Shown piece after piece: positions 2,627 through 55,961 of a stretch of 64,000 nucleotides of DNA (position 1 is the stretch's first letter; every line of letters starts with the position of its first letter). The notes under the pieces were generated by a model. That model saw nothing but the letters and a program-made list of their open reading frames with translations, ran no database searches and was not told the origin of the DNA. Position numbers and translations under genes: made by a program. Source of the stretch: Candidatus Dojkabacteria bacterium (lineage in GTDB: Bacteria; Patescibacteriota; Dojkabacteria; J137); NCBI GenBank assembly GCA_030834985.1, contig JAUQWV010000001.1:120979-184978 (forward strand), given 5' to 3'.

Positions 2627-4102
2627 TTAATCGATTCCTAACCAAACTAGTTTAGGTTTAAAATACAAAACAGAGTCGTTACTTACTTTAATACTTAATA
2701 ATTCTTTTTCTTCCTTAGTTTGAATATCAACTATTCTATACTCAATAATTGTTTCTGTTGCTGCGTTATAGTTTCGGTAGTAAGAAAGAGTGTTTTTTGC
2801 TGGGTTATAAATAAAATTGTATAGATCTTGAGGTAATTTAATAGATTCTATAGGTGACATTGTATTATCTTCATTGTTATATCTATTTATTGTGTATATG
2901 CGGTCACCGGAATAGTTCTCTGTATCTTCTGGTAATGAAGTTAACAAATATATGTCGTCACTACCAATTACTTCAATCTGATGCGTTGTTTCACTTTTTT
3001 CTAAATCTCTAATTTTTGTTAAAGATTTATCGTTAATGTTAAGTCTGTTGATACTTGGTCTATTTGTCTCAGGTGGATTGTAAGGATAATAATTCTGCAC
3101 AATAGCGTTTTCATTTTTTGCAGTTATAATGCTAAGAGATCCTGAATGTTGAACCTCGTTATATATATCAGTAAAATTTCTGTCCTTTAAGGCAAAAGCT
3201 TTTTGATATCCTGCATAGCCGCAGCCCAGGTACATAGAAACAACATTGTTAATAATATTTTTGTTATATGGTACGCAGTCTGGATTACCGTCTGTTAAAA
3301 CGGAAAATTTTGAAATATTAGAATCCGCTATATTGTAAAGGAGTAATTCGTTACCTTGAAGTAGAATGATTTTTGTATTATCACTATCGTATCCAACTAG
3401 TTTAATCTCGTGTGCACCAAGCCTATTACTTAAATCATAAGGTAGATACGAAGTATTATATCCTGCAGCAATATCATCTACGTATTCAACATAACTTACC
3501 GGATAACTAATCAATTCATCATACTCGTTTACATATACACTATAACTATTAGGATATATAACAATCTTTTTGTTATATACCTGCTGGTTTGTAGCTCCTA
3601 GATCAATTCTGTCTGTAGACCAAATTAGCTTATTTTCTCCTGTTTCTAAGTTCAGTTCAAAAACTTTGAATGCTATGGGATCAAATTTAAGCTTAGAAAC
3701 ATCCATATTAGATGCGAAAATTTTGTTCTTGTAATCTTTATCAGACAAACTGTAAGTAATTCTTTTTTTATCAGGCGATATAACATAGTCCATTATTTTT
3801 TCATCACCTGATACTAACTCTAGTTGCTTAACTTTATCTAATGTTGATGCAACAAGCTTATTATCATCTGTATTGTAAATAAAATCGTAGTTATCATAGA
3901 TTTTATCAGATGCTATATTTGGAGCAATTTGAACTTCAGGGGTCTTAGAACCATTTAGGACCAAGGCTATAACTGCAATCATACACAGCAGTACTACTGA
4001 AACAATCGCTGCTGCAATTTTAAATTTCCGTGTTTTGGCTAACGTTTTAAGTTTAGATAGTCTTGAAGCCTTTGTTTCGCCTTGGAGAGCTTGGGTTTCC
4101 AT
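2627..4102 (-). CDS. hypothetical membrane-anchored protein (491 aa), large extracytoplasmic domain
   Basis: One N-terminal TM helix (IAAAIVSVVLLCMIAVIALVL); the rest is polar and Tyr/Asn-rich, beta-rich-looking. Confidence 0.55.
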   Translation of the reverse strand: METQALQGETKASRLSKLKTLAKTRKFKIAAAIVSVVLLCMIAVIALVLNGSKTPEVQIAPNIASDKIYDNYDFIYNTDDNKLVASTLDKVKQLELVSGDEKIMDYVISPDKKRITYSLSDKDYKNKIFASNMDVSKLKFDPIAFKVFELNLETGENKLIWSTDRIDLGATNQQVYNKKIVIYPNSYSVYVNEYDELISYPVSYVEYVDDIAAGYNTSYLPYDLSNRLGAHEIKLVGYDSDNTKIILLQGNELLLYNIADSNISKFSVLTDGNPDCVPYNKNIINNVVSMYLGCGYAGYQKAFALKDRNFTDIYNEVQHSGSLSIITAKNENAIVQNYYPYNPPETNRPSINRLNINDKSLTKIRDLEKSETTHQIEVIGSDDIYLLTSLPEDTENYSGDRIYTINRYNNEDNTMSPIESIKLPQDLYNFIYNPAKNTLSYYRNYNAATETIIEYRIVDIQTKEEKELLSIKVSNDSVLYFKPKLVWLGID

Positions 4103-4209
4103 AGGAAAAAATATAAAAATGTTACATTAATTGTACTAAAATCATCTTACAAAATCTCTACATTTAAGAAAATCTGCGATTTTGCTATACTTACAAAGCT
4201 TACGTTGAT

Positions 4210-4284
4210 GGTGTTGTGGCCAAGTAGTAAGGCGAGAGTCTGCAAAACTCTTATGCGCGGGTGCAAATCCCGCCAACACCTCCA
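4210..4284 (+). tRNA. tRNA-Cys (GCA), CCA encoded
   Basis: Cloverleaf folded by hand: acceptor ggtgttg/caacacc, anticodon stem agagt/actct with loop ctGCAaa, T-stem gcggg/cccgc, discriminator t plus cca. The T-loop reads tGcaaat (G at position 55). Confidence 0.8.
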
Positions 4285-4298
4285 TTTTGAACTACCGG

Positions 4299-4389
4299 GG
4301 AGAGGTCGCATAGTTGGTCTAGTGCGCAGTCCTGGAAAGACTGTTTCCTCGCAAGGGGAACGCAGGTTCGAATCCTGTCCTCTCCGCCA
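4299..4389 (+). tRNA. tRNA-Ser (GGA), class II with long variable arm, CCA encoded
   Basis: Acceptor ggagagg/cctctcc, anticodon stem cagtc/gactg with loop ctGGAaa, 18 nt variable arm, T-loop ttcgaat, discriminator g plus cca. Confidence 0.8.
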
Positions 4390-4624
4390 TTTTTAAATGG
4401 TTCCACAAGACCTGCCTACCTCCTTCTGGTATCTTGAACGGTATTGTACATTGGCTTTCAGTAATTGCCAAATTCACAAAAAGTGCCTATTTTGCTCAAA
4501 AATAGCCATTATCGACTTTTAAACTTACCTCTCTGGTTCTAAGCTTTTTTGTTGCGGGTGTTGTGTATTCTTGATCGATGATTCTCGTTCTAATTTCGTT
4601 CCTCCCTTTTGATATAATTACTTT

Positions 4625-4858
4625 ATGAATAAAGAAAAGGATGTAAAAAAACAACATTACGTTCCACAAGTGTATTTGAGGAGATTTTCAATAAAAAATC
4701 AAATTAATGTATTGGATAAATTTAATGATAAATCTTACCCATCTAATATTAAAGATGTAGCTGAGGAAAATAGATTTTATGATATTCCTATCCCATCAGA
4801 AATAATTGAATTGGCTAAGAAGTCCGGAATAGAAATTGATCATCAATTTGTATTTTGA
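4625..4858 (+). pseudogene. truncated DUF4238-family gene (77 aa N-terminal fragment)
   Basis: N-terminus carries the HYVPQVYLRRF signature typical of DUF4238 proteins, which are normally ~300 aa. The ORF stops after 77 codons, directly downstream of the tRNA pair. Confidence 0.45.
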
Positions 4859-4928
4859 TGCAAGGCCATTGAATATCTATAGGTGATATAATCTTAAACA
4901 TCTATTTCGGATCTAGCTAATTTCTAAT

Positions 4929-5978
4929 ATGGCGAATATAAATTTTGATAGGGAGTACTATAAAAATTTAATAGCGAAGCACGGGTATCAAGAGCTGAAT
5001 ATTTCTGCAATAGATTTCAATCTTGGCGATATTAACAAAGATATATTACAGAGAAAATGGTTGTGTCACAGTAAAGGCTATATATTTGCAAAAGAACTTC
5101 TAGATAAAAAATCAATTGTAACAACTGGTATAGGAATAAGTGGTGCTCCACATATGGGCACTTTAGGACAAATTTTTAATTCTATATTCCTTCAGAACCA
5201 TGGTATTAATACGCAATTTGTATTAGGAGATTTAGATGCTTACAACGGTAAAAAACTTTCATTATCTTACGTAAAAGAACTTTCAGAACAGTATAAATCA
5301 TTTATTACTAAGTTAGGCTATTCTACAACGGATGGAAATATACTAAGGAATCAATTTGATGCAAGTGAAGTAACTAGGACAATGTATCTAATTGCAAAAT
5401 TTATAGAAGATAAAGATTTTGATAATGTGGAAGAAGATCTTCACAATTTTTATTCTGATAAAGGAAAAGTAGATAAGGATATGTCATTTAGACGTAAGAC
5501 TTCTCTTACTCTTATGACTGCAGATTTTATAGATCTTGTTATCAATCACAGTTTTACTAACGTGTTAGTTACATTAGGAGTAGATGAACATAAGTATGTT
5601 TTGTTTTCAGAAAAGATTCTAGAAAGAGTTATAGAGTCCGGTGAAATACTACCAAGCGACAGTATTATAAATTTTGGAGCAATGTACACTCACATAATTA
5701 GAGGCTTTAATAACTACCCTAAAATGTCGAAATCATTCCCTGATTCTTCGATAAATATTGAAATGAAATCAGATGAAATAAGAAATAGAATTTTGAATGA
5801 AAGAACAAACAAAATTCCAGAAGAAGACACTGTATATCAAATGATGTGTCTAGTAAGTAAATTTAATAGTGAGGAACTGTCAAAAAGATATATTGCATGC
5901 AAAGAAGATAAAGCATTATGGATGAAATATAAAAACGACTATATAGAATACTTGATAGATATTTTTAAACTGTGGTGA
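4929..5978 (+). CDS. class I aminoacyl-tRNA synthetase paralog, TrpRS/TyrRS family, divergent (349 aa)
   Basis: HIGH-region-like GIGISGAPHMGTLGQ, FVLGDLDA, and an intact KMSKS (YPKMSKSFPDSSINI...IRNRI). It has an extra ~65 aa N-terminal extension. First gene of a tightly packed operon. Confidence 0.6.
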   Translation: MANINFDREYYKNLIAKHGYQELNISAIDFNLGDINKDILQRKWLCHSKGYIFAKELLDKKSIVTTGIGISGAPHMGTLGQIFNSIFLQNHGINTQFVLGDLDAYNGKKLSLSYVKELSEQYKSFITKLGYSTTDGNILRNQFDASEVTRTMYLIAKFIEDKDFDNVEEDLHNFYSDKGKVDKDMSFRRKTSLTLMTADFIDLVINHSFTNVLVTLGVDEHKYVLFSEKILERVIESGEILPSDSIINFGAMYTHIIRGFNNYPKMSKSFPDSSINIEMKSDEIRNRILNERTNKIPEEDTVYQMMCLVSKFNSEELSKRYIACKEDKALWMKYKNDYIEYLIDIFKLW

Positions 5979-5979
5979 A

Positions 5980-7107
5980 ATGAAAAAATTTGCAAATGGC
6001 ATACAATTTAATAACCCTTTACACGAAGCGATATATCGGATAAACGTTGGACAAGATATAACTGAAGAGATGGCATACAATGCTTTTAGCTATACACTTA
6101 ACATTGAGGATGAAATTAATCGTGGAGTCTGCTTAGGAGTACTACTAAATGGTATAGTTTCCAAAAGACCCCAAATACATGAAATTCTCGGGATATTAAA
6201 AGCAACTCTTGACTATGATGGGATAGATATTACAAATCAAAAAAGATTGGAGATGCCTAACAATGCCCGAGTTATAGGCTATGCAGGGAGCGGTAAGAAA
6301 GGTATAAAAACTATTAATGTGTCTTCTTGCGCAGCCATCGTTGCTGCCACAGCGGGTACTTATGTGGCAAAATCATGTTCTGGTTCTACATCGTCTGTAT
6401 CAGGTTCTGCAGATTTCATTGAAATTTTAGGTGCCAATATTAGCCAAACTAATGAAGAGATGATAGATATAATGAAAAAGACTGGCTTAGGTTTCTTTAA
6501 AATTGAAAAAATGATCCCTAAGTTTGATAAGGTATATGGAGGTCATTTCTATGCACCTAATGCTCTAAGCTTTGGATTAGCAGGTATTTTATTGCCTTTT
6601 AGACCTGACAATTTATTTTACGGTTTAGCCCATCCTAATATTCACTTACTTATAAATGTACTAAAAGAATTAAATTATCGTTATGCATTCGTTGCATCAA
6701 CAACTGATGATGGAGTGCACTTTCTTGATGAGATTGGAATATTTGGTATGACTTCGGTTATTGGTATTCAGGAACATAAAATTGGTCATACTCTTACTTT
6801 CTCCCCAGCAGAAGATTTAAAATTACAAGGATACAATAGAAGTTCAATTGAACCAGGTAAGACTAGATTGGAGAATGTGAAAATGGGTGTCGATGTTTTA
6901 AGAGGGAAAGGCCAAATAGCTCATGAAGATTTGATTTGTGTAAATGCAGGAACCTTACTATGTTTAGACAAAAAAGCTAAAGACTTAACGGAAGGTTACA
7001 CTATATCAAAAGAGACTATCAAATCAGGGAAAGCAATAGAAAAATTAACTGAATTTATTACTGCAACTGGTGGTGATCTCAATACTTTAAATCAGTTTTT
7101 AGACTAA
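5980..7107 (+). CDS. glycosyltransferase family 3 fold protein (TrpD / nucleoside phosphorylase-like), divergent
   Basis: INVSSCAAIVAATAGTYVAKSCSGSTSSVSGSADFIEILGANI aligns by eye with the TrpD core [38 protein letters not shown]. The phosphate-loop GTGGD is replaced by GSGKKG and KHGNR by KSCSG. Confidence 0.55.
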   Translation: MKKFANGIQFNNPLHEAIYRINVGQDITEEMAYNAFSYTLNIEDEINRGVCLGVLLNGIVSKRPQIHEILGILKATLDYDGIDITNQKRLEMPNNARVIGYAGSGKKGIKTINVSSCAAIVAATAGTYVAKSCSGSTSSVSGSADFIEILGANISQTNEEMIDIMKKTGLGFFKIEKMIPKFDKVYGGHFYAPNALSFGLAGILLPFRPDNLFYGLAHPNIHLLINVLKELNYRYAFVASTTDDGVHFLDEIGIFGMTSVIGIQEHKIGHTLTFSPAEDLKLQGYNRSSIEPGKTRLENVKMGVDVLRGKGQIAHEDLICVNAGTLLCLDKKAKDLTEGYTISKETIKSGKAIEKLTEFITATGGDLNTLNQFLD

Positions 7108-8127
7108 TTGAAGGCAATAAAAATTTATAAAAATAAAATAGAATATACAGATATACATGAACCAAAAGTTGATGAAAAGTTTAATGTATTAGTAAGAGTA
7201 ATGTCAGTTGGTTTATGTGGAAGCGATGTACAAAGAATAGATTTTATTAATTCAAATAATCAAGAAATAAACCATCCAGTTTTAGGTCATGAAATTTCTG
7301 GAATTATCGAAGAAATAAAAGGAGAACAAGCTACTTTTAAAGTAGGAGATAGGGTGGCAATCGAACCTATTATCTACTGTAACAGTTGTAAATATTGCAC
7401 CGAAGGGAATTTCCAGTTTTGCGAAAATATCATTGCTTTAGGTAAAACTATTAATGGGGGATTTGCACAAAAAGTAGTTGTGCCAATAGAAAATATACAT
7501 AAACTACAAGATGATATAGACTTTGACACAGGAACTTTACTTGACCTATGCTCTGTCTGTGTACATATTCATAATTTAGCAGGTGATTTTTCAGGAAAAA
7601 ATATTGCAATAATTGGTGATGGTGCAGTAGGACTAATGACCGCAACATTTGTTGAAATATATGGTGGTAAAGCAATTATTATAGGAAAAAGGAAGAATGG
7701 TGGTTATAACTTTGTAAATTTTGAAGATGTTAGGAAACTAAAAGAAATCGAATCTACTTTTGACATAGTTATAGAAACAGTCGGTAGAAAAAATCTCACT
7801 TCCCTTAATCAAGCAATATCATTGAGCAAAATAAAGGGAAAGATTGTTGTCGCAGGTGTATTCGCACCAGAGTTTATGTTGCCAATAACTGCACGAACAC
7901 TTTTTTATAAAGAAATTACTCTTGTTGGAGCTAACTCATATAGTTATGATCATAATAAATCAAGAAGTGAAACTTTGTATGCAATTGAAATATTAAACAA
8001 ACATTATAAGAAGCTGAGTAATCTTATAACTCACAAGTACCCTCTTCAGAAATTTGAGGATGGACTTAATGCATTTAGAAATAAGGACACAAGTCATGCA
8101 ATAAAAATAGTATTTAACCCAAGCTAA
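7108..8127 (+). CDS. zinc-dependent alcohol dehydrogenase (MDR superfamily; sorbitol/threonine dehydrogenase-like); TTG start
   Basis: GLCGSDVQ, GHEISGII...GDRVAIEP, the structural-zinc Cys cluster CNSCKYCTEGNFQFC, and the Rossmann motif IAIIGDGAVG. Confidence 0.75.
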   Translation: MKAIKIYKNKIEYTDIHEPKVDEKFNVLVRVMSVGLCGSDVQRIDFINSNNQEINHPVLGHEISGIIEEIKGEQATFKVGDRVAIEPIIYCNSCKYCTEGNFQFCENIIALGKTINGGFAQKVVVPIENIHKLQDDIDFDTGTLLDLCSVCVHIHNLAGDFSGKNIAIIGDGAVGLMTATFVEIYGGKAIIIGKRKNGGYNFVNFEDVRKLKEIESTFDIVIETVGRKNLTSLNQAISLSKIKGKIVVAGVFAPEFMLPITARTLFYKEITLVGANSYSYDHNKSRSETLYAIEILNKHYKKLSNLITHKYPLQKFEDGLNAFRNKDTSHAIKIVFNPS

Positions 8128-8148
8128 TTTAACTTTTATTAAAATTTT

Positions 8149-9045
8149 ATGAGTACAAAAGAAGAGTTATATAAAAAATATCCTTGGTTAGAAGTAACAA
8201 CTACAATGGTTGATTATGTAAAGCCTAGTTACTACGATAAGATTATTAAGGAATACGAATATAAAGGAAAGAGTGATTTAGACTATACAATTGATTTTCT
8301 AAAAGATCAGACAAGAAAGGATTTGAGTGTTGTTGAGTTTGGAGCAGGTACAGGTAGAGGAACAAAACTTATAATGGAAAATATCGATTTTGATAAGCTA
8401 ACTCTTGTGGATCTAAGTCCTCAAATGATGGAGACTCTAAAAGAATTATTCAGCAAAGATTCTCGGGTACAGTTTGCACAAAGTGATCACCTAAACTTTA
8501 TGGAATCTACTGAGGATGTGTTCGATTTAATGGTGACACTATGGAGTTTATCTCACTCTATCCATCAACATTTTGGAAGAAATAAGGGAGATGATACTAA
8601 GATAGTTCAAATATTAAAAAAGTTCTTCACTAATAATATATCTAAGGAAGGAAAAGCATTCATTATCCACTTCGATACACTATCGGATGAGCAAAGAATT
8701 TTAACTAAACAATGGGCCAAAGTTTATCCTACCTTTGCTGATTATTACCACAATAAAATTCAATCTCCTTCTAAACAAATTGTTGATAAAGTATTAAATC
8801 AACTAAATGAGAGCAATACTATTTCATACAATTGTGAACATATAATAGGAGATGAAATTATATATAAAGATATGAATGAAGCTTTAGAGGTCTTCATGAA
8901 TTTTCATTTAGAATCACATTTCAATCAATTGGATATTGTCGAAGAAGTTGTAGAAGATTTAACAAATGAACTAAATAAATATAAAGACGAAGATGGAACA
9001 ATCAGAGTTAAGCCAGGCTTTTTCCTATACACTATAACAAGATAA
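8149..9045 (+). CDS. class I SAM-dependent methyltransferase
   Basis: Motif I VVEFGAGTGRGT followed by an acidic loop (LVDLSPQM). Confidence 0.6.
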   Translation: MSTKEELYKKYPWLEVTTTMVDYVKPSYYDKIIKEYEYKGKSDLDYTIDFLKDQTRKDLSVVEFGAGTGRGTKLIMENIDFDKLTLVDLSPQMMETLKELFSKDSRVQFAQSDHLNFMESTEDVFDLMVTLWSLSHSIHQHFGRNKGDDTKIVQILKKFFTNNISKEGKAFIIHFDTLSDEQRILTKQWAKVYPTFADYYHNKIQSPSKQIVDKVLNQLNESNTISYNCEHIIGDEIIYKDMNEALEVFMNFHLESHFNQLDIVEEVVEDLTNELNKYKDEDGTIRVKPGFFLYTITR

Positions 9046-9050
9046 TTGAA

Positions 9051-9905
9051 ATGACTAAACCTGAGAATTCTAAATTAATCGTATTAGATATTGATAACAC
9101 TATAAATACTAAAAATCTAAATGGAGAGATTCAATTAGTTAAAGAATTTATAGACTTACATACTAAGATCGATTTAAAGAAGAATATTAAAATTGCTTAT
9201 AATACAACTAGGGGAATCTCTCGGGTTTTGGAAATGCTAAAAGGTGAACAGGAATATTTCGGTAATGGAGTAATATCAGCATTAAATGGTTCTTTGATCT
9301 ACGATCTTAAAGGTATGCAACAACTTGAAGGTTATACTATCTCAAATGATATTAGAAAAATGTTGTCGGAATGGTTTATAAAAAACACAGATATAACATT
9401 TATGGCATTTTATACTAATAACGATATATATGGTCATGTATATTTGAAAGATGCTAATAATGTTGATGAGTTCTATAAATTGCATGAATCTTCTTTTAAT
9501 CATGAGAAATATAGATGTATATCTGATCCTAAAATCTTTGCTTCATGGATTGAACAAAAAGATATCAATATGATTGAATTCAAAACGGCTGATGAAAATA
9601 AAACAAATGAATTTTTGATTAATAATCCCAACATAAACTTCTCCTTTGATGGACATTTTTATATTAATCCTAAAGGTATAAATAAAGGATCAGGGTTAAG
9701 AGATTTAATAAGATTTATTTATAGAGATGAAACTAATTTGGATATTATAGTTGCTGGTGATTCTAAAACAGATTTAGCAATGTTTCTGGATTCAAACTAT
9801 ATGAATATTATTGTCGGAGAAAGACTACCAGAAATTAGAAATGAGAATTATACAAAAGTAAAAGATCCAAAAGAACTTTGCAGTATTTTAAGTAGCTTAT
9901 TATGA
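9051..9905 (+). CDS. HAD-superfamily hydrolase, Cof/IIB-type phosphatase
   Basis: Motif I LIVLDIDNTI (DxDxT), C-terminal IVAGDSKTDLAMF (GDxxxD), and a cap-domain-sized insert. Confidence 0.65.
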   Translation: MTKPENSKLIVLDIDNTINTKNLNGEIQLVKEFIDLHTKIDLKKNIKIAYNTTRGISRVLEMLKGEQEYFGNGVISALNGSLIYDLKGMQQLEGYTISNDIRKMLSEWFIKNTDITFMAFYTNNDIYGHVYLKDANNVDEFYKLHESSFNHEKYRCISDPKIFASWIEQKDINMIEFKTADENKTNEFLINNPNINFSFDGHFYINPKGINKGSGLRDLIRFIYRDETNLDIIVAGDSKTDLAMFLDSNYMNIIVGERLPEIRNENYTKVKDPKELCSILSSLL

Positions 9906-10813
9906 ACATATCCAGCAAAACAAAAGTTAACAGTGTATATCAATTGCCTGCTAATAAAAATGAATTATCAAAATTATCTGATATTACTACACTTGGGAAA
10001 ACATATAGCCTAATGAAATATGGCTCTCGGTTAGCAATCAGAGATTTCGCAGAACTAATATATAGCCAATACGAGAAGGACTTTGATTACAAAGATGGTG
10101 ATTTGTATATAACATCTACTCTAACCTCAGATATTGATTCCAGCTCACACTTTATTGCAAGGGAACTTCAAGAGATTATCAATAGAAAAAGATTAAAACT
10201 TAACCTCAAATCTTGTAAATATATTGAACTACTTGCACGAAAAAAAATACTTATTAGTAGCGATTACGGAAAAGTACAGAATAAAAAAGATAGAATTCAA
10301 TCACAAGGTAATATGGAACTTATAACATATCCAAATCTTAAGTCTGATGATTTACTACTTGTTATTAATGATTGTTTCGTGACCGGTGCTCAATGGGAAC
10401 TACAAGAAGAATTATTGAGAAGTAATAGGTTAACCTCTCTTATTAATTATTACTATATTATTAAATTTACTGAATCAAAAGGTAGCTTTGATATTAGTGT
10501 AGAAGACTTATTGAACAACTATGAAGTTAATAATGATTTAGATTTCTTAAATTTAATTATTAAGCTTTCGAAAGACAAACAGTTAACTTGGAATAAAAGA
10601 ACATTATTAAGGTCACTAAACCTTAATCAAAAACATTTTGAACTATTTATAGATGGGTTGAGAGTCGAAGATTTAGAAACTCTTTGTAATAATTCAGTAT
10701 TATCAGATACTCATCTTGTAAATAACGGAGAGTTTTTAGGCAAAATTGATTATATGTTCAATGTGTTGAAGAATAAAATCCAGAGAGAAGGATTCGAACC
10801 TCCGAAGCCCTAA
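9902..10813 (+). CDS. hypothetical protein with type I phosphoribosyltransferase-like PRPP motif
   Basis: SDDLLLVINDCFVTGAQ resembles the PRTase PRPP-binding loop. The last ~35 nt overlap tRNA-Tyr on the opposite strand, and the C-terminal ...REGFEPPKP is the antisense translation of the tRNA T-arm. Confidence 0.4.
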   Translation: MNISSKTKVNSVYQLPANKNELSKLSDITTLGKTYSLMKYGSRLAIRDFAELIYSQYEKDFDYKDGDLYITSTLTSDIDSSSHFIARELQEIINRKRLKLNLKSCKYIELLARKKILISSDYGKVQNKKDRIQSQGNMELITYPNLKSDDLLLVINDCFVTGAQWELQEELLRSNRLTSLINYYYIIKFTESKGSFDISVEDLLNNYEVNNDLDFLNLIIKLSKDKQLTWNKRTLLRSLNLNQKHFELFIDGLRVEDLETLCNNSVLSDTHLVNNGEFLGKIDYMFNVLKNKIQREGFEPPKP

Positions 10814-10862
10814 GGACGCCTGATTTACAGTCAGGTGCGATTGACCGCTCCGCCATCTCTGG
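10779..10862 (-). tRNA. tRNA-Tyr (GTA), long variable arm, no encoded CCA
   Basis: Minus strand reads CCAGAGA-TG-GCGG-AGCGGTCAA-TCGC-A-CCTGA-CTGTAAA-TCAGG-(15 nt variable arm)-GGAGG-TTCGAAT-CCTTC-TCTCTGG-A. Confidence 0.8.
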
Positions 10863-10991
10863 ATATGAGAAAGTATAACAAAAAGTGGGCTATTTTAGTA
10901 TGTGATGTTACGATAATACAAGACTTTTTGATGAAAAAAGTTTAAAATTAGCCAAATAAAATTAAGAATACTATTTATTCATAAAGAACGT

Positions 10992-12116
10992 ATGTTAGAC
11001 AATCTAAAAAATATAACAGAAGAAATTCTAGGAGAAGAAAGACTCGTAGAGCTATTAAATTCTAATATACAACCAGTACACTATATTGGATTTGAAATAT
11101 CAGGAAAACCTCATATCGGTTCAGGTATTGTTACCATGATGGTTATAAAGGAGCTATTGAAGCTAAATGTTAAATGTAAGATATTTTTAGCTGATTGGCA
11201 TTCATGGATTAATAACAAACTAGGAGGAGACATCGATTTTATAAGAGAGGTGGGCATCCCTTATTTTAAAGAAAACATTTTAGCTGCAGCAAAATGCGTA
11301 GGCGTTGATCCATCTAATATCGAATTTGTAATTGGTTCCGACCTTGCAAAAGATATGCAATATTGGGCTACTGTAGTAGATGTTGGTAGAAATACCAGTC
11401 TATCTAGAATTCAAAGAAGTATTACCATTATGGGTAGAAAGGAAGGAGATAGTGTGGATTTTGCGAAATTAATGTACCCAGCCATGCAAGCAGCAGATAT
11501 TTTCTACATGGGTATACATATCGCTCACGCTGGTATGGATCAACGTAAGGCACATGTTATTGCTATTGATGATGCAAATCATATGGACATAAATCCAATA
11601 ATAGTAAATGAGAAAAAATTTAAACCAGTAGCAGTTCATCAGCATTTACTGATGGGCCTTACTCCTCCATCAAAAGAGATATTAGAACGTATTGAAAAAG
11701 GAGAAATTTCTCCAAAAGATGTTTTAGGGGAATTAAAGATGAGTAAAAGTAAGCCAGACAGTGCTATTTTTATGAATGACTCAGAAGAAGAAGTTATTAG
11801 AAAGATTAACAAAGCTTATTGCCCTGAGGGAATTACTGTTTTAAATCCCGTTTTAGATTGGGTAGAAAACTTGTGTTTTAAATTCTCCAATTCAGAGATC
11901 AATATTCTAAGAGATGAGAAATGGGGAGGAAATATTACCTACAAAACATATGAAGAGCTAAAGAATGATTTTGAACAAAAGAAATTACACCCAAGTGATT
12001 TAAAGAAGGCAGTAGCACTATTTATAAATGATTTCCTTAGACCTGCCAGAGAGCATTTGTCCAAGCAAGAGATTGTTGAAATGGCAAAGAAAATAGAAGA
12101 AAAGGTAACTAGGTAA
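10992..12116 (+). CDS. tyrS: tyrosyl-tRNA synthetase, archaeal/eukaryal type
   Basis: HYIGFEISGKPHIGSG (HIGH region), ELKMSKSKPDSAIFMNDSEEEVIRKINKAYCPEG (KMSKS plus the archaeal-type TyrRS tail). ~374 aa with no bacterial-type C-terminal S4 domain. Confidence 0.8.
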   Translation: MLDNLKNITEEILGEERLVELLNSNIQPVHYIGFEISGKPHIGSGIVTMMVIKELLKLNVKCKIFLADWHSWINNKLGGDIDFIREVGIPYFKENILAAAKCVGVDPSNIEFVIGSDLAKDMQYWATVVDVGRNTSLSRIQRSITIMGRKEGDSVDFAKLMYPAMQAADIFYMGIHIAHAGMDQRKAHVIAIDDANHMDINPIIVNEKKFKPVAVHQHLLMGLTPPSKEILERIEKGEISPKDVLGELKMSKSKPDSAIFMNDSEEEVIRKINKAYCPEGITVLNPVLDWVENLCFKFSNSEINILRDEKWGGNITYKTYEELKNDFEQKKLHPSDLKKAVALFINDFLRPAREHLSKQEIVEMAKKIEEKVTR

Positions 12117-12749
12117 ATGAATAACTTTGAAATAGATAAAAAACAATTTACTTTTAAATATAATGATAAGAATTCAAAAATTCTTATCATTACAGGACCA
12201 AGGTCAGTTGGAAAAACTACACTTGCAAAACAATTTTATGAATCTATAGGTATAGATTTTCTGGATCTCGATGATTTAGTTAATGAGAAGCTGAGTGAAT
12301 TCTTTAAGTCTGGTTCCAAAACACCTTTAGAACAAGCTATGGAGGCAAAAAACTATGACTTAATAGAAAGTATAGTTAGAGATATTGTTCAGAGTTTTGA
12401 TAATATAAACCAAGCTACTGCCATTGCTTTTGCAGGAGGAGCGTATACAGGATACCAAGGGTTATCAGGAGATTTAAAATCGAAATTTATTACAATAGGA
12501 TTAATTCCATACGAGAATGACGATGAACTATCAGTAAAATTGCTAATTGAAAGAGAATCTAATCGGGAGCATTTCAAAAAACTTATTGATGAAGGGAAGT
12601 TAGATATGGAAACTTTATCTAATCGAGTACGAAATGATTATATTAAAGTAAATACTTATCTAAGAGCAAATACAATAGATGAATTAATTTTTATCCAACA
12701 AAAGACACCTATCGAAATAATGAACCAGGTGTTGGATTTATTAAAGTAG
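12117..12749 (+). CDS. P-loop kinase (shikimate/adenylate-kinase-like fold)
   Basis: Walker A ILIITGPRSVGKTTLAKQF followed by LDLDD. Its start overlaps the tyrS stop codon. Confidence 0.45.
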   Translation: MNNFEIDKKQFTFKYNDKNSKILIITGPRSVGKTTLAKQFYESIGIDFLDLDDLVNEKLSEFFKSGSKTPLEQAMEAKNYDLIESIVRDIVQSFDNINQATAIAFAGGAYTGYQGLSGDLKSKFITIGLIPYENDDELSVKLLIERESNREHFKKLIDEGKLDMETLSNRVRNDYIKVNTYLRANTIDELIFIQQKTPIEIMNQVLDLLK

Positions 12750-14942: not shown

Positions 14943-15082
14943 CCACTTTGGATTGGTCGGAAGGTTTGAATTACTACATACAAAAGACGTTGATTTCCTC
15001 CAAAGGTGGTTTGACGGGTGTAATGAGCTTACGCAAGTAGCTTAAGCACCTTGCTGTTTAACAACCTATTCTAAGGAGACGT

Positions 15083-16969
15083 GTGATGAAGCAGTATCGG
15101 CGTTCGCAGTACAAAAAGCTCTCAAAGCAAGGTGCTTTACATAGCTTCTTGGCTATCCTTTGGGAGTATCGGGCGTTTATGTACGTTCCGGCATTTTTTG
15201 TTTTAATGCTGGAGCTGGCACAGATGGGGGCAAGGGTCTTTATTTCAGAGATTCTTACCCGAATTGAGTTGGCTGACTGGGGAGTACTTGGCGTTCTGCT
15301 GATTTCTCTCTTTGCCTACAACATGCTCACTTTGCTTCTTGACGTTAAGATGGTACGAGCAGTCATTGAAAAGGTCGGCTATGACTTTGCATTTGCATTC
15401 GAAAATCGAGTCATAAGCCACGTAATTCGGCTAGGTCATACTTTCAATTCATCATTTCCTATCTCTGTAACCCTAGATAGGATCTCTAAGATTGAAAGGG
15501 TGTCTGACCTTGTTGAACAGGGCTTTTGGGCTTTGTTTAACAACCTGTTTCAAGGTGCAATAAGCATTGTGGTACTGGCAATCTACTTGCCACAGGCAGT
15601 TCCAATTGTAATCATTGTGTTCTTCCTGTTCCTTCGGTTCAATGGGCACATGATTGCAAAGCAGGGAGTTGTAAGGCGCCGGCGAAAAGATCGAGGTGAG
15701 GATAAAGCAGAAACTCGAATGAGACTGATTTCAGCAAATACTACTCTGCTCTCTAACAATGCGTTAGACCGGACAGAGGAAGAGGTATTTGCTCAGTCTA
15801 GAAATCTAAAGCGTGTGGGAATCCTTGAGTTGCTCTATGTTCTTCGGGGCAATGGGATAATCAGGGACATCCTTCTGTACTTTGGTCGGTTCTCGGTACT
15901 TTCATTTGCAGTGTACATGGCACAAATCAAACTGATAGACATCCCTAAGCTGGTTCTAATCTATACAGTAAGCGAGACCATGTTTATTGGTCTTTGGGGT
16001 GTTGTAAGGTTTATCTATTCGTTCATGTACGAAAGCCCGTCGATAATTAAAATCGATGAGCTGATGGCTATTAAGCCAACTGTAACAGAGCCTGAAAGTG
16101 CTGTGACCATTCCAAGCGGTCCTTTGGGATATTCTCTGCAAGGAGTAAGCTTTACCTACAAGGGAATCGAAAGTAAGTCAGAAAAACAGGAGAATCCGTT
16201 CTTTACGGAAGCTCTGAAGAAAGCGAATGCACTACGTCTGCAACTTGGCCTTGAAGAATATGTAGAAAGAAAAGAGGAGGAGAAGCCGCAGCATTTATGC
16301 GGACTTACTCTTAACATACTTCCAGGTCAAAAGGTTGCTCTGGTCGGGCAAAGCGGTTCGGGTAAAAGCACTCTAGCGCTGATGCTTTCTAAGCTTCAGC
16401 TGGCGGATACTGGCGAAGTTTATGTAAACGGTATCGAGATGAGAGAGCTTAACGGCTATGAACTCCGTTCCAGAATCGCTGTTGTACCTCAAGGCAGCAA
16501 TGTTGATATCTTCAACGATAGTCTACTTTACAATATCACATTGGGTGATCCGAGCTTCACCGAGCAAGATGTTATTGAAGCGTTAAAGGTAGCTGAGCTG
16601 TGGGATACAGTTTGTCAGTGGCCTTTGATGATCTTTGAAACTATCGGGGAGCGCGGGCGTACATTGTCGGGCGGTCAGCAGCAAAGGGTCGCAATCGCCC
16701 GCGCTGCAATCCGTAAACCTGACCTCATCATTCTAGATGAGGCTACAAGCGCATTGGATACTCAAACAGAGCGTGCAGTTCAGGATTCGCTAAATAAGCT
16801 GCTTGATGGACGAACAGCAATAATCATTGCTCACAGGTTATCCACAATTAAGGATGTGGATAAGATTGTAGTGATGAAAGACGGCTGTATAGTTGAAGAA
16901 GGCAGCTGGAACGAATTGGTCGGTCAAGACGGCGAATTTGCCGCGCTTGTAGATGCGCAAACCCTATAG
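15083..16969 (+). CDS. ABC transporter, fused permease/ATP-binding protein (exporter type), GC-rich
   Basis: N-terminal multi-TM domain; NBD with LVGQSGSGKSTLALML (Walker A), LSGGQQQRVAIARAA (signature), IILDEATSALD (Walker B) and IAHRLST (H-loop). RBS aaggagacgtgtgATG. Confidence 0.8.
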   Translation: MMKQYRRSQYKKLSKQGALHSFLAILWEYRAFMYVPAFFVLMLELAQMGARVFISEILTRIELADWGVLGVLLISLFAYNMLTLLLDVKMVRAVIEKVGYDFAFAFENRVISHVIRLGHTFNSSFPISVTLDRISKIERVSDLVEQGFWALFNNLFQGAISIVVLAIYLPQAVPIVIIVFFLFLRFNGHMIAKQGVVRRRRKDRGEDKAETRMRLISANTTLLSNNALDRTEEEVFAQSRNLKRVGILELLYVLRGNGIIRDILLYFGRFSVLSFAVYMAQIKLIDIPKLVLIYTVSETMFIGLWGVVRFIYSFMYESPSIIKIDELMAIKPTVTEPESAVTIPSGPLGYSLQGVSFTYKGIESKSEKQENPFFTEALKKANALRLQLGLEEYVERKEEEKPQHLCGLTLNILPGQKVALVGQSGSGKSTLALMLSKLQLADTGEVYVNGIEMRELNGYELRSRIAVVPQGSNVDIFNDSLLYNITLGDPSFTEQDVIEALKVAELWDTVCQWPLMIFETIGERGRTLSGGQQQRVAIARAAIRKPDLIILDEATSALDTQTERAVQDSLNKLLDGRTAIIIAHRLSTIKDVDKIVVMKDGCIVEEGSWNELVGQDGEFAALVDAQTL

Positions 16970-16992
16970 AATAAGGGGAATAGCAATAAAGA

Positions 16993-17021
16993 GGGGACGA
17001 CCACTTTGGGTGGTCGTCCCC
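16993..17021 (+). terminator. hairpin ggggacgaccac-tttgg-gtggtcgtcccc downstream of the ABC exporter
   Basis: 12 bp perfect GC-rich stem; only a weak T-tract follows. Confidence 0.45.
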
Positions 17022-25831: not shown

Positions 25832-25859
25832 TTGTTTGCTCAGGTTTCTCTGCTATAAT
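25832..25859 (+). promoter_or_regulatory. putative promoter TTGTTT-16-TATAAT upstream of the surface-protein gene
   Basis: Hexamers read from the sequence. The ORF-track TTG start at 25836 lies inside this element, which argues for a downstream start. Confidence 0.3.
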
Positions 25860-25898
25860 GAACAAAAATATAGTACTTTAGTTGTTATTTATACTATA

Positions 25899-28800
25899 GT
25901 GAAACGACTAACACACCAACTGCGCATTGGTTTGTATTTATCAATGCTAGCAATGTATTTTATTTCTCCCTTGGCTCCATTAGTAGCCGCAGATAATCCC
26001 CCAAGCTCATACCCTAGCGTTTTAGAGCAAGACCTAACGGATGGAACTGTTGAAACACCAGTGGAAGAGGAAGTTCCTGAACAAGAAACTCCTGTAACCG
26101 AGGAAGAACTACCGCTTACTTATCCTACTTCAAGCCCTTTACTTGAAGTTCCAAGTAAGGTTGTAGAAGGTAAAAAGGTTACTTACAATAACATTACTAC
26201 AGGTACAACATATATTTATGATTTCAATAGCGCTGTAACAATTAACTTTGCTGCTTTACCAGAAGGTGAATGGCATTTAAATATTGAGGAAGTTCAAGTT
26301 ACAGTAGATGGTCAAACTACAACAGGTTATGAATTCACTTCGAATTTAGTAGATGGAACTTTTGAATATGCAATGACCTTACCAAATCCTTACGGAACTT
26401 CTGCAGTTGTCAAATATTCTGAAGATGGCACTACTTATCAAGAATTAACTAACGAAGAAGTAGTTAGCAATGTACTAAGGTTCACTGCTGATCACTTTAC
26501 TGTGTTTGTAGTTGTACCTGATGACATTGTTCCAAGTAATATTGTCTCTTACTTTCATCAAGGCTGGAGATTAACTAGAGTTGGTAATGCTTCTATTGGA
26601 TTAACGGATATTACGACAGCAGGAGCTACCAACGCTTTTGGCCCTGACATTATTGGTATGAGTAGACCTGGAGGAGCTGGAACAAACAGGTCATTTCTTG
26701 GTTATTTTGATTATGGAAGAAGATTAAATGAAATAGAACAGATAAAATGGAATAGATTTAGTAATATTGGTAATGATACTTACCTAAACATATTTATTAC
26801 AAATTCCTTTGGAGGTTTTGGTGTTTTAGGTACAACAGCTACAGTTGTTGTTAAACCTAGCATTACACCTGGTGTTTGGCAAGAAGGAGTATTTGATAGT
26901 TCATCAACAGTAGATCTTAGAGTAGGAGGAACAACCTATACGCTTACATGGTCAGAATTAATGTCAACATACGGAAATTGGTTCATATACAATGATGCAA
27001 ATATATTGGCTAATAGGCAAGTAGGCGGAATTGTATTTGTGTCAGGCTCTTCAAGCCCTACCGCACAGCAAGAACATTATTACGATGGCGTTACTTTGGA
27101 TTTTGTAGGTGAAGATCCAATATTTTATGATTTTGTTCAAGAAGTTCCTGAGCAACCGGTGATAGAGATCTTAACTCCACTTTCTGGTTCATATGTAAAA
27201 GGAACAGTTAATGTAAGAGCTAGAATTACAGATTCAGGCTACGGTTTAAATCCTGACTATATTTGGGCAAAATTCTCAGATGGTATATCTCCTGCTGAGT
27301 TTGGCCCAACTTTGATGACATTAGTTCCTGGCGAAACTGATATTTATCAAGCAAATATCAACACAGTTCCTAATAATGGACTTTATAGTGTTGGCGTTGA
27401 TGTAATTGACAATATCGGTATGGGGAGGTCTGCTAAAAATATAAACGTCACGGTAGATAATACAAGACCAACCTTAGTATTTAATAATCCTTCTGTAGCT
27501 AATCAGCTTGTAGGAAGCGACTTTACTGTTAGTGTAACAGCTACTGATAATACTGTACTTAATTATATTGCTGTAAACTTATACAATGCTACTAACACAA
27601 CCTTACTTGGAACTTGTGGTGTATCACCAACTAATCTTGGAGTAAGTACATATACGTTTGAATGTAATATTGATGTAGATTCTTTATCTGAAGGAATCTA
27701 TACTTTGCGAGCAGGAACTTTTGATGCTGCAGGTAATAATCAAACAACAACTGCAACATTTAAGGTTGATAAAACCGCTCCTGTGTTGACAATTAAAGGT
27801 AGCGTATATGGTAATAGCTACACGCCTGAATCAATTGGAGTTGGTCCCTTAAGTAATGTATTTCAAAAAGTTAGCTTTAAGTTATTTGATAATAACTTAA
27901 TTGATAAAGTAACTGTAAACGGTGTTGTAAATGATATGTCAAATAATCAATGGAGTGATGCTAACAACATAATACCAAATAATTACTGGGGTGCTGTTGA
28001 GGGATTAAATACAATTGTACTATTTGACGCAGCTGGTAACAGCACATCATATGACTTTGTATTAGATACTACAGCGCCAGCTACTCCACTTGGCTTACAT
28101 TATTGGGATCCAAGTACTAGTTCTGAGCTAGCATGCGGATCTATTGTTCAACCAAAAAGTATATGGCCAAGATGGGATGCTAATACAGAAAGTGATTTCT
28201 CTCATTATGAATACACATCATTTGATGTAACTACTTCTGCTCCATTCTGGAGAGTTGGATTAGATGAACAGGTTCTAACCATAAACGAATTTCAACATAG
28301 CTGGGTCCCACCTATGGATGGAATTTACGGTTATGCAGTACGTTCGGTAGATGAAGTAGGTAATAAGTCAGACTGGGCTTTGGGTGGTACAGAAACTCTT
28401 GAAGATAGTTGTCAGTATACGGTTGATAGAGTAAGACCAGTTGCACCTGTAATTGTTTACCCTGATGAAAATGATGCCTTTAATGTAATGCCTATTCTTA
28501 ATGATTGGGAACATGAAGAGGAACTATTAGGAATAGACTTTTATAGAGTTGCCTATTTATATGATGATGGACACGTATTCGGCGGCAGTACATGTCCTGG
28601 CTTACAACTAGAAATAGATGGAGAGCTTAAAACTGTTAGCGGTTGTAGAGACGTAACAGCATCACAAAGATTCCATGTTCCAGATACTATAGAAGAAGGC
28701 GGTGTGAATTTTAAAGTTCAAGCATTTGACTTAGCTGGTAACGAAGGTGAATGGAGTGAATGGCGACATTATTATTACGATATTACTCAGCCATCCTCAT

Positions 28801-54152: not shown

Positions 54153-55961
54153 TTATGTACGTTCTGAAAACTGTTGTCTAGAGTTGTAATCTGGTGCCGA
54201 GATATCTTCAGTCATTCCTACCAAAAATGGATCAGAGTTCTGTATAAGTGTAAGCATATCGTGTGCCATATCTCTATTAGAAATATCGTTACCAGTTGTA
54301 GAGCGTTGGTCTGTAAAGTAATCCAATTGTGTAGGTGGTCCGCTTAAGTGCATTCGCGTTTGATGTCCTAGTGGAAGCAGTTTTCTAATTACAGTTAGAT
54401 CTTTATTAGGAAATCTTGCCGCTAAATATTTATAGAATTCCATTAACTTTTGATAATATGCATTGGCATCAGCTTCCCATTGACCCTGTAAGTGCTGTAA
54501 ACCTTCAGTTTTAATAATTTTTGAACTTGTATTAAAGCCATTCGCGATCATAGCCTCATAGTCTACTTGGTCATTTTCGTTATAATCAAAATTTAGCAAG
54601 TATCCAATATCTTGTCTACCTAACGCTCTGTGTCGATTAAAGTCTCTTAATTGGGCTAATGCGGTATTAAGTACAAATAATTTATCACCTCTAATATCAC
54701 CTAGATTACCCATCTTTTCATGTCGAGTATGATTTTGGAATATAATTGAACCTATCTCTCTTTTTGCTTGATCATCTAATGTGGCCAACCAACTTAATAC
54801 TGTTGATTCTTTAAGATTAGGATATGCGGTGCAAATGTACTGCATTGCTACTAAAGCGCCACTTGGGGCGCCGTCAATAAGGGTTACTTCTGTTTGCCTT
54901 GCATAATCCACGGTGTTAGGGACGGCGCCCTCCAATAACTCATTAAATGCTGGCATTGCTTCCAAATATGCTCTTAAATTACTTACGTTTTCTCTTATTG
55001 TAAGTGTAGGATCAGTATATTTTATTAATGGTTCAAGATTCGCATTTACATCTTGCCCCTCTTCTGTTTCTGAAAGTGAAAGTGCAAATCTAAGTTGCTC
55101 TGCTAACTCTACATATTCCTGCTCGCCAGTTTCTTGCATTATTTTTATATAGTTATTGAAGATTCTTTGATTACCTAATAGGCACATAGAAGTAGTTGCG
55201 CCCATAGGAATCCAACTTCTTACTACATCTAACACTCTGGCTTTTATAGTATTGTCTTCTAATGGTTCATCTTCTGGATTGCCTGCAAACTGCTGTAGGT
55301 AACCCTGCTCAATTAATTGGTACCACTTAACGTAATTACCTTCAGCCATTGCTAATAGCTCATAATATTGCTCAATAATATGCTCTTTATCCGCTTCAGA
55401 TCCTGCAGGAATTACCGAAAAATCCATTAAATCTTCAATCCGCGGAAAATTCATCTTATTGAATTTTATATATCTGCTTGAAGATTCCTGTCCATCGCCA
55501 TACCATAGATGATGGAAAATCCAGTATGCCTGCTCTAGCGATATATTATTAAAGAATAGAAATACTGGAATCATTCCCAGGATAGATTGATGTCCATAAT
55601 CTAGTCCAAATTCCTTAATCTTTCTTGCAGCAGCAACAGGATCCATTTGTACAAGCTCCAATACTTCATCAAAGATCTCTTCATAGCTTTTTCTAGTTCT
55701 AGAGGTTCTGGCGCCGCTCCAGGCGGGAAAAATATGCTTATCTATTCCTCCTTCTGATTTCGGTTCACTAAATGGAAAGAATGAGACAATCGGTTTTGTA
55801 GGATCTTGTCTTTTAACCTGATATAGCAAGTTGTGCAGTTTACCGTCAACTTCTCTTGTTACAACATCGATAGAAAATTTAGGAGGGTGTTGTACTTCAG
55901 CTTCTGATTCTACAGATTCTGGCCGTGTTTTAGATATTTCTTGATTCTGATCTAAAGACAT
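54153..55961 (-). CDS. large ThyX-family (flavin-dependent thymidylate synthase)-like protein with duplicated-domain architecture (602 aa)
   Basis: C-terminal half: FNRHRALGRQDIGY (RHR motif) and RKLLPLGHQTRMHLSGPPTQLDYF, aligned by eye to recollected T. maritima ThyX [24 protein letters not shown]. N-terminal half: GHQSILGMIPVF and YWIFHHLWYGDGQESSSRYIKF versus ThyX GHETPFEHIVF / [20 protein letters not shown] (RHR degenerate, SxRY kept). Adjacent to dcd. Confidence 0.5.
   Translation of the reverse strand: MSLDQNQEISKTRPESVESEAEVQHPPKFSIDVVTREVDGKLHNLLYQVKRQDPTKPIVSFFPFSEPKSEGGIDKHIFPAWSGARTSRTRKSYEEIFDEVLELVQMDPVAAARKIKEFGLDYGHQSILGMIPVFLFFNNISLEQAYWIFHHLWYGDGQESSSRYIKFNKMNFPRIEDLMDFSVIPAGSEADKEHIIEQYYELLAMAEGNYVKWYQLIEQGYLQQFAGNPEDEPLEDNTIKARVLDVVRSWIPMGATTSMCLLGNQRIFNNYIKIMQETGEQEYVELAEQLRFALSLSETEEGQDVNANLEPLIKYTDPTLTIRENVSNLRAYLEAMPAFNELLEGAVPNTVDYARQTEVTLIDGAPSGALVAMQYICTAYPNLKESTVLSWLATLDDQAKREIGSIIFQNHTRHEKMGNLGDIRGDKLFVLNTALAQLRDFNRHRALGRQDIGYLLNFDYNENDQVDYEAMIANGFNTSSKIIKTEGLQHLQGQWEADANAYYQKLMEFYKYLAARFPNKDLTVIRKLLPLGHQTRMHLSGPPTQLDYFTDQRSTTGNDISNRDMAHDMLTLIQNSDPFLVGMTEDISAPDYNSRQQFSERT

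Follow-up and report, generated by a model that had tools for sequence, protein, structure and literature searches.

A probable TybB-type aminoacyl-tRNA synthetase paralog opens a tyrocitabine-like gene cassette in a Dojkabacteria genome, and related cassettes are linked to tyrosyl-tRNA synthetase genes

The tyrocitabine (tyb) cluster of Lactobacillus iners specifies a pathway in which a protein resembling an aminoacyl-tRNA synthetase (aaRS) is put to biosynthetic use. According to a review (PMC13235161) that summarises Patel et al. 2022 and from which we take the details of the pathway, TybC glycosylates L-tyrosine with phosphoribosyl pyrophosphate (PRPP), an Amadori rearrangement probably following; TybE reduces the TybC product to a linear form; and TybB, which resembles a synthetase, adenylates the carboxylate with no tRNA involved, the AMP staying on the tyrosine carboxylate. 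The nonribosomal peptide synthetase (NRPS) TybD then acylates the AMP ribose to give a prodrug, which TybA exports. The pathway is based on knock-outs and makes TybB biosynthetic; heterologous expression of the L. iners cluster yields a small-molecule nucleotide, and tyrocitabine inhibits at the post-transcriptional level, its target being reported as unknown (PMC13235161). By BLAST the authors recovered related clusters from Archaea and many Candidatus bacteria, every one of them including a TybB homologue (PMC13235161). Here we describe a gene at positions 4929-5978 of a 64-kb stretch of DNA (hereafter the window) from a Candidatus Dojkabacteria bacterium, a member of the candidate phyla radiation (CPR), whose product we assign to the TybB family. 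The abstract of Patel et al. is said to speak of 'Amadori synthases' and 'abortive tRNA synthetases', and we use these terms as glosses for the TybC-like and TybB-type proteins respectively.

A locus of L. iners DSM 13335 (L068 in our survey) encodes a major facilitator superfamily (MFS) protein (401 aa), an aaRS-like protein (343 aa), a TrpD-like GT3 protein (352 aa), an NRPS of A-PCP-C organisation (1019 aa), and a zinc-dependent alcohol dehydrogenase (Zn-ADH; 309 aa), an order that agrees with the published tyrocitabine cluster tybA-E (PMC13235161). The 4929-5978 protein is 40% identical (63% positives over 347 aa, E 5e-84) to the protein at the tybB position, and the products of the next two genes, 5980-7107 and 7108-8127, are 26% and 27% identical to those at the tybC and tybE positions, the first of these pairs having AGSGKK in both members. 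On the strength of these three matches we regard 4929-5978 as the TybB orthologue of a tyb-like cluster, and we consider it likely that its product is a class Ic aaRS paralog of the TybB type and that the gene heads a biosynthetic operon (4929-10813) that resembles the tyrocitabine cluster and works by a tyb-type mechanism. Proteins of the TybB kind were described in 2022, and this one is an unannotated member, entered in public records as 'hypothetical' or, wrongly, as 'tryptophanyl-tRNA synthetase'; its identification corrects these annotations and also assigns a nucleotide-antibiotic-like pathway to the ultra-small genome of a CPR bacterium. The window and the L. iners cluster have in common the TybB family itself, with its HxGT and KMSKS motifs, and the TrpD-like and Zn-ADH neighbours, but the cluster in the CPR bacterium is an NRPS-less variant with no adjacent MFS gene, it has in addition genes for a methyltransferase, a HAD-IIB phosphatase, and a PRTase_3-like protein, and it lies beside tRNA-Tyr and an archaeal-type tyrS (Table 1). 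Neither the operon nor the neighbouring open reading frames (ORFs) that were scanned encode an AMP-binding, PP-binding, or condensation protein, and no MFS gene lies near the cassette, where the closest exporter-like gene is that of an ATP-binding cassette (ABC) transporter (15083-16969) 4 kb downstream.

A previous reading of this stretch from its letters only (the sequence-only reading) had pointed to this ORF, to its KMSKS, and to an APHMGT motif, and all three are present exactly as claimed. APHMGT is encoded at nt 5145-5162, its HIGH-like PHMGT portion at nt 5148-5162, and GAPHMGT comprises residues 72-78; KMSKS is encoded at nt 5721-5735, within YPKMSKS at residues 263-269, and the wider contexts are TTGIGISGAPHMGTLGQ and NYPKMSKSF respectively. 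The HIGH region had been described as altered, and so it is, but mildly, as H-x-G-T retains the first His and the Gly and matches HLGH in the tyrosyl-tRNA synthetase (TyrRS) of M. jannaschii (MjTyrRS) and TIGN in the tryptophanyl-tRNA synthetase (TrpRS) of B. stearothermophilus (BstTrpRS); the correspondences to MjTyrRS and BstTrpRS residues given below come from an alignment with these two reference sequences. In an alignment of 35 homologues P74, H75, G77, T78, K265, M266, S267, K268, and S269 are invariant, as are G100-D101-L102-D103, E220-H221, and the N-terminal residues Y20, F30, W44, C46, and H47, and the catalytic-site set as a whole (H75, G77, T78, D101, D103, D199, D219-E220-H221, and KMSKS) is invariant or nearly so. 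Because of this invariance we take the HxGT and KMSKS motifs to be real and under selection, and not chance occurrences.

The AlphaFold2 (AF2) model of the protein (pLDDT 91, pTM 0.91) has a complete class Ic fold, which Foldseek matches to TrpRS and TyrRS with probability 1.00; archaeal and eukaryotic TrpRSs come first (TM ~0.7, 16-17% identity) and archaeal TyrRSs next. With these enzymes it shares the whole-chain fold (TM ~0.6-0.73), the Rossmann core, the N-terminal extension, the HIGH-like and KMSKS motifs, and the Asp of the specificity helix, but it is only 14-18% identical to them and fails their equivalog cut-offs. The match to Pfam tRNA-synt_1b (PF00579) scores 41 bits; the TrpRS equivalogs are missed by a factor of 4-10 (TIGR00233, 44.4 versus 176.75 bits; NF008925, 45.3 versus 451; NF008927, 39.1 versus 478), and the TyrRS equivalog NF006330 is missed at 42 bits against a cut-off of 220. 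A profile of the TybB family reaches MjTyrRS and archaeal TrpRS in the PDB at E ~1e-10 only, and the family hidden Markov model gives 524 bits for the window ORF and 22 bits for the neighbouring TyrRS. From these scores we judge the protein to be neither a TrpRS nor a TyrRS. The N-terminal extension, put at 65 residues in the sequence-only reading, is real in that about 60 residues precede the first Rossmann strand of the model (residues 62-69); it is conserved in the family and can be aligned to archaeal-type TrpRS (NF008927 positions 19-346 against residues 11-340; Foldseek alignments of 351-377 columns), and it is a feature of the archaeal-type TrpRS fold and no add-on.

In the specificity pocket, Asp199 occupies the column of the Asp that binds the Tyr hydroxyl or the Trp indole NH (MjTyrRS D158, BstTrpRS D132), and Met196 that of TrpRS M129 and TyrRS Gln155; among the Tyr-binding residues of MjTyrRS only D158 is kept, with Y32 replaced by Thr, Ser, or Ala, Y151 by Ser192, and Q155 by Met196. 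The Gln of the GxDQ motif is Glu220. Relative to MjTyrRS and BstTrpRS the protein has an inserted block of about 25 conserved residues (EEDLH.FY...GKVD..M.[YF]RRK) and a shorter C-terminal domain, with about 80 residues after KMSKS and no S4 domain, and the positions at which MjTyrRS contacts the anticodon are unconserved.

The family, of about 350 aa, is tight (35-55% identity) and widespread. In a set of 5.8 billion proteins at least 193 homologues, at 40-55% identity, were found; they belong to Patescibacteria, Woese-, Nano-, Heimdall-, and Thorarchaeota, the Bacillus cereus group, and Clostridium beijerinckii, and each is entered as 'hypothetical' or, where JGI named it, as 'tryptophanyl-tRNA synthetase'. 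When one genome per species was scanned, 126 loci were returned, of which 80 were kept; they add many Streptomyces, Kitasatospora, Saccharopolyspora, Dactylosporangium, Nocardiopsis, Amycolatopsis, and Micromonosporaceae, together with Alpha- and Gammaproteobacteria, Bacteroidota, and L. iners. The operon structure is conserved over about 90 loci, the trio of aaRS-like, TrpD-like (GT3), and Zn-ADH genes being kept in essentially all of the 93 that we compared, and in most a HAD phosphatase of some subfamily follows the core genes. Other accessories vary: the B. thuringiensis plasmid pBMB172 carries the entire module, plus an MFS pump, between insertion sequence (IS) elements, the Clostridium locus has a GT4 glycosyltransferase gene, and actinomycete loci have radical SAM, methyltransferase, GT4-like, GT2, and carbamoyltransferase genes. 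The plasmid location between IS elements, the failed equivalog cut-offs, the shortened C-terminal domain, and the unconserved anticodon contacts together argue that this is not a translational enzyme. The sequence-only reading had proposed an aaRS paralog that keeps its ATP site and works outside translation, which agrees with a class I protein whose characterised relative does adenylate an amino-acid derivative without charging tRNA (PMC13235161). The description of the gene as a TrpRS paralog, in contrast, has to be given up, since TyrRS is about equally distant, the characterised homologue uses a tyrosine derivative, and it is TyrRS, not TrpRS, that accompanies the gene in genomes.

Table 1. 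The cassette and adjacent features, in window coordinates
Feature	Position	Strand	Details
Extended -10-like element TGATATAAT	4884..4892	+	37 nt upstream of start codon; candidate
TybB-type aaRS-like adenylating enzyme ('abortive tRNA synthetase')	4929..5978	+	ATG start, 349 aa
TybC-like TrpD-family phosphoribosyltransferase ('Amadori synthase')	5980..7107	+	375 aa; PF00591 116 bits
TybE-like Zn-dependent polyol/ketose reductase	7108..8127	+	339 aa; ADH_N + ADH_zinc_N
S-adenosylmethionine (SAM)-dependent methyltransferase, lineage-specific tailoring gene	8149..9045	+	298 aa; Methyltransf_25/12/11
HAD-IIB (Cof-type) phosphatase	9051..9905	+	284 aa; Hydrolase_3 57 bits; TIGR01484 at cut-off
PRTase_3 (ComF-like) protein, borderline	9902..10813	+	303 aa; PF15610 28.6 vs cut-off 28.7
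tRNA-Tyr (GTA) between cassette and tyrS	10778..10863	-	ARAGORN
Archaeal-type tyrosine--tRNA ligase	10992..12116	+	374 aa; NF006330 386 bits vs cut-off 220

By analogy with the tyb pathway, the TrpD-like enzyme would join PRPP to the α-amino group of L-tyrosine, giving an N-riboside that undergoes Amadori rearrangement, and the Zn-dependent reductase would turn the resulting ketose into a linear polyol chain. The aaRS-like enzyme, using its HxGT/KMSKS ATP site, would then adenylate the carboxylate of the N-glycated tyrosine and, with no passage of the acyl group to tRNA, release a stable tyrosyl-adenylate-like nucleotide metabolite able to inhibit translation. In the CPR variant the NRPS prodrug step would be missing, and the gene set suggests that the HAD-IIB phosphatase, the methyltransferase, and the PRTase-like protein probably tailor the product, the phosphatase likely stripping the 5-phosphate derived from PRPP. 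A tyrosine-like substrate is suggested by Asp199 in the specificity-Asp column and by TyrRS as the constant genomic partner; fold, motifs, orthology, operon structure, and conservation are observed, and substrate, product, and activity in the Dojkabacteria host are predicted.

Several points weigh against this interpretation. Identity to the characterised lineage is modest (40% for TybB, 26-27% for TybC and TybE), the characterised biochemistry is confined to the L. iners pathway with the CPR members known from their sequences, and the DSM 13335 locus was equated by gene order alone with the published cluster, whose source is a different strain. The C-terminal domain of the AF2 model retains three to four helices and might conceivably bind tRNA. 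Finally, the window has neither NRPS nor MFS genes and has three others, so its end product must differ from tyrocitabine.

The wider result of the cassette survey, and the part most worth following up, is the linkage to TyrRS. In 81 of the 93 loci tblastn places a TyrRS gene no more than about 5 kb from the TybB homologue; five of the other 12 are short or truncated contigs, and the well-flanked loci with no TyrRS nearby are L008/L009, L019, L053, L072, L076, and that of L. iners. The linked TyrRSs pass the bacterial equivalog TIGR00234 (263-374 bits) even in Nanoarchaeia and Heimdallarchaeia, and they fall into clades that cross phyla, one (63-68% identity) comprising Nanoarchaeia, Heimdall, Woesearchaeota, Bacteroidota, and a Methanosarcinales metagenome-assembled genome (MAG), and another (59-70% identity) the Bacillus plasmid, a gammaproteobacterium, and three CPR phyla. 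The TybB homologues follow broadly the same pattern, although Spearman's rho is only 0.29 (p 3e-19, with non-independent pairs), and TyrRS therefore appears to move with the cassette. In seven Woesearchaeota/Nanoarchaeota loci (L014, L016-L018, L020, L035, and L051) a bacterial-type (~403 aa) and an archaeal-type (~337-374 aa) TyrRS gene stand in tandem directly upstream of the TybB homologue. The Bacilli MAG locus L038 (7551-10472) has the cassette, then two near-identical tyrS copies, and then tRNA-Tyr, with a T-box leader (8875-9063, 107 bits) before the second copy only; the arrangement suggests that the host tyrS was duplicated in situ and recruited to the cassette. We considered the T-box specifier as a clue to substrate and discarded it because the only T-box found precedes this tyrS copy and not a cassette, and tRNA-Tyr was likewise dropped as a constant component because it is present in two lineages only and absent from most loci.

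The TyrRS of the window itself is of a different kind. Its relatives (52-66% identity) are widespread in CPR and DPANN, orthologous tyrS genes occur in Dojkabacteria relatives that have no cassette, and it retains the Gln that binds the α-amino group; it is probably the housekeeping enzyme, and we rejected its co-transfer with the cassette on the grounds that it is of a common CPR/DPANN housekeeping type with close cassette-free relatives. In three cassette-free Dojkabacteria loci (L092-L094) restriction-modification, OLD-family, and ArdA genes lie upstream of the orthologous tyrS, which makes the tyrS neighbourhood a variable hotspot in this lineage.

The linked TyrRSs often differ at the α-amino-binding position. 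This column, the Gln of the LQxYD motif, is a Gln in all four solved bacterial TyrRSs aligned, and among 62 distinct linked TyrRSs it is Met in 35, Val in 11, and Gln in 16; Val is found in L006, L010, L014-L018, L020, L021, L026, L035, and L051, and Met in most actinomycete and clostridial loci. Eighteen loci have a gene for a HinT-like HIT protein. Several adenylate-mimic antibiotics come with immunity functions, including agrocin 84 (a resistant LeuRS), albomycin (a SerRS copy), and the microcin C type (HIT-family phosphoramidases). The tyb-like loci resemble these in specifying a nucleotide-amino-acid conjugate that would block translation and in having a co-travelling TyrRS, a HinT-like HIT protein, and efflux pumps, and differ in that the conjugate is an N-glycated tyrosine adenylate made by an aaRS paralog and not by a ThiF-like or other enzyme. 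Since tyrocitabine is an N-substituted analogue of tyrosyl-adenylate, and given the linkage and the substitutions, TyrRS is the target that most readily suggests itself, and the linked gene may be what confers immunity. Alternatively, because the TybB family too has Met in the equivalent column, the linked TyrRS may handle N-glycated tyrosine. We therefore offer as a tentative proposal, one we hold with less than even confidence, that tyrocitabine-class metabolites act on TyrRS, that the co-travelling TyrRSs are either immunity enzymes or handlers of N-glycated tyrosine, and that the NRPS-less CPR cassette, with its methyltransferase, phosphatase, and PRTase, makes a new analogue, beside tyrS and tRNA-Tyr, that is directed against the host or competitors. 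A co-transferred TyrRS that is often substituted at the amine-binding residue and often accompanied by a HIT hydrolase is a testable candidate for the target of tyrocitabine, and the linked TyrRSs provide a ready collection of putative resistance alleles.

Adenylation by aaRS paralogs is known outside translational aminoacylation of tRNA, as in MshC, the mycothiol ligase related to CysRS, and GluQRS/YadB, related to GluRS. These share with TybB a class I aaRS ancestry and the retention of adenylation chemistry, but they belong to other aaRS subclasses and pass the aminoacyl group on, to GlcN-Ins or to queuosine, whereas TybB reportedly leaves the AMP on its product. The close association with TyrRS, together with the tRNA-Tyr that adjoins the cassette in two independent lineages, the retained C-terminal helical domain, and the occurrence of Met or Val in many linked TyrRSs where TybB has Met, such that both could handle an N-substituted tyrosine, raises the possibility that the 4929-5978 protein is a tRNA-directed enzyme in the manner of GluQRS/YadB, which together with the linked TyrRS aminoacylates or modifies tRNA-Tyr or loads it with glycated tyrosine. 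We regard this as unlikely, because the L. iners cluster when expressed heterologously yields a small-molecule nucleotide (PMC13235161), most loci have no tRNA-Tyr, and the MFS exporters, glycosyltransferases, carbamoyltransferase, radical-SAM genes, and NRPS found across the clusters fit a secreted metabolite. An MshC-like ligase is quite improbable as well; it would attach tyrosine (or Trp) to an acceptor that the TrpD-like, ADH, and HAD proteins derive from a sugar, giving an aminoacyl-sugar inhibitor of TyrRS of the SB-219383 type in which no adenylate is retained. The pairing of polyol dehydrogenase and phosphatase does recall iminosugar or ribityl chemistry, the family has members in Micromonosporaceae, and in NRPS-less clusters the adenylate may have another fate, but the homologous published pathway retains AMP on the tyrosine carboxylate (PMC13235161). 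No biosynthetic cluster for SB-219383 or its aminoacyl-iminosugar type was found in the searchable literature, and the match to tyrocitabine superseded the idea.

The remaining alternatives return the protein to the aaRSs proper. Divergent housekeeping enzymes are common in reduced CPR genomes, and a TrpRS of this sort could be argued from the archaeal and eukaryotic TrpRSs that are the best fold matches, from the name that JGI gives several homologues, from Met196 and Asp199 in the M129 and D132 columns of the Trp pocket of bacterial TrpRS, and from the window itself, in which no TrpRS-like ORF was found beyond the two class Ic genes, 4929-5978 and that of the TyrRS. It is nevertheless very improbable: scores of 44-45 bits stand against TrpRS equivalog cut-offs of 177-451, the gene is always operonic with TrpD-like and ADH genes, the characterised homologue charges no tRNA, and family members are carried by L. 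iners, Clostridium, Streptomyces, and, on a plasmid and flanked by IS elements, B. thuringiensis, all of which presumably possess a canonical TrpRS. That the gene is an antibiotic-resistant aaRS copy, like the indolmycin-resistant TrpRS and in line with a resistance role allowed by the sequence-only reading, is scarcely credible even though aaRS duplicates beside biosynthetic genes are often immunity genes and the active-site motifs are intact, as it is the equivalog of no aaRS, opens a biosynthetic operon, and has a homologue that is biosynthetic in the knock-out-based pathway described above (PMC13235161), while the immunity profile belongs to the bona fide TyrRSs, so that the adjacent or co-travelling tyrS is the candidate resistance gene.

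The six genes of the proposed TybB-type operon lie on one strand with the aaRS-like gene first and gaps of -4 to 21 nt. The TybC-like protein scores 150 bits with TIGR01245, under the cut-off of 199, and has GSGKKG where TrpD has GTGGDG; its best PDB relatives are anthranilate phosphoribosyltransferases. The nearest solved relatives of the TybE-like protein are ketose reductase and threonine, galactitol-1-P, xylitol, and arabinitol dehydrogenases. The methyltransferase, HAD-IIB, and PRTase-like genes of the window are found only there and in the sister loci L012 and L013; among the 93 loci the methyltransferase (c34) and PRTase_3-like (c36) clusters are confined to these three. The PRTase_3-like protein has no NCBIfam match, and a part in a Ter-associated 'nucleoside-like metabolite' pathway was set aside for it since the Pfam match is borderline (28.6 versus 28.7 bits) and the gene lineage-specific. 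An anti-phage defence role for the cassette was also rejected, as its six proteins have no PADLOC match except one at chance level. The last 36 nt (10778-10813) of the PRTase_3-like ORF overlap the minus-strand tRNA-Tyr; L012 and L013 are arranged alike, with tRNA-Tyr between cassette and tyrS and the same overlap (ORF 14974-15894, tRNA 15849-15934), and either the true stop may be earlier or the overlap may record an insertion at the tRNA.

Between about 4860 and the ATG the window and L012/L013 are nearly identical, the TGATATAAT element included, the similarity beginning about 70-90 nt upstream of the start codon. Upstream of about 4850 the sequences are unrelated, and the cassette therefore occupies differing left-hand contexts among close relatives. 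The TGATATAAT element is put forward as a candidate only, as it has no -35 match and so was not listed by the generic promoter scan; that scan, together with one for terminators, gave fewer sites than shuffled controls and is uninformative. A check for island borders around 4850-10870 revealed no convincing direct repeats and no clear GC deviation. A 77-aa ORF (4625-4858) ends where the similarity to L012/L013 starts (~4850), at the left edge of the shared cassette; only the first ~52 of the 281 positions of the DUF4238 model are matched, and because the match is limited to the start of the model we take the ORF to be the remnant of a truncated gene. Just upstream of the cassette are tRNA-Cys (GCA) and tRNA-Ser (GGA) (4082-4396 and 4210-4389), over which runs a surely spurious 104-aa ORF (4082-4396).

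On the other side, a small AAA ATPase gene (12117-12749) directly follows tyrS, as it does in L012 and L013, and in PADLOC its product is weakly similar to PDC-S01 and PtuA-type ATPases (E 2e-7 at best). The ABC exporter gene at 15083-16969 has a GTG start and lies in a stretch (15001-17000) of 44-46% GC, compared with about 30% around it, and may have been horizontally acquired. Elsewhere in the window, a 1622-aa protein encoded at 25836-30704 has several bacterial Ig-like domains and is probably a surface protein, and a 602-aa ORF at 54153-55961 has a partial match only to ThyX (Thy1) and is far longer than a normal ThyX.

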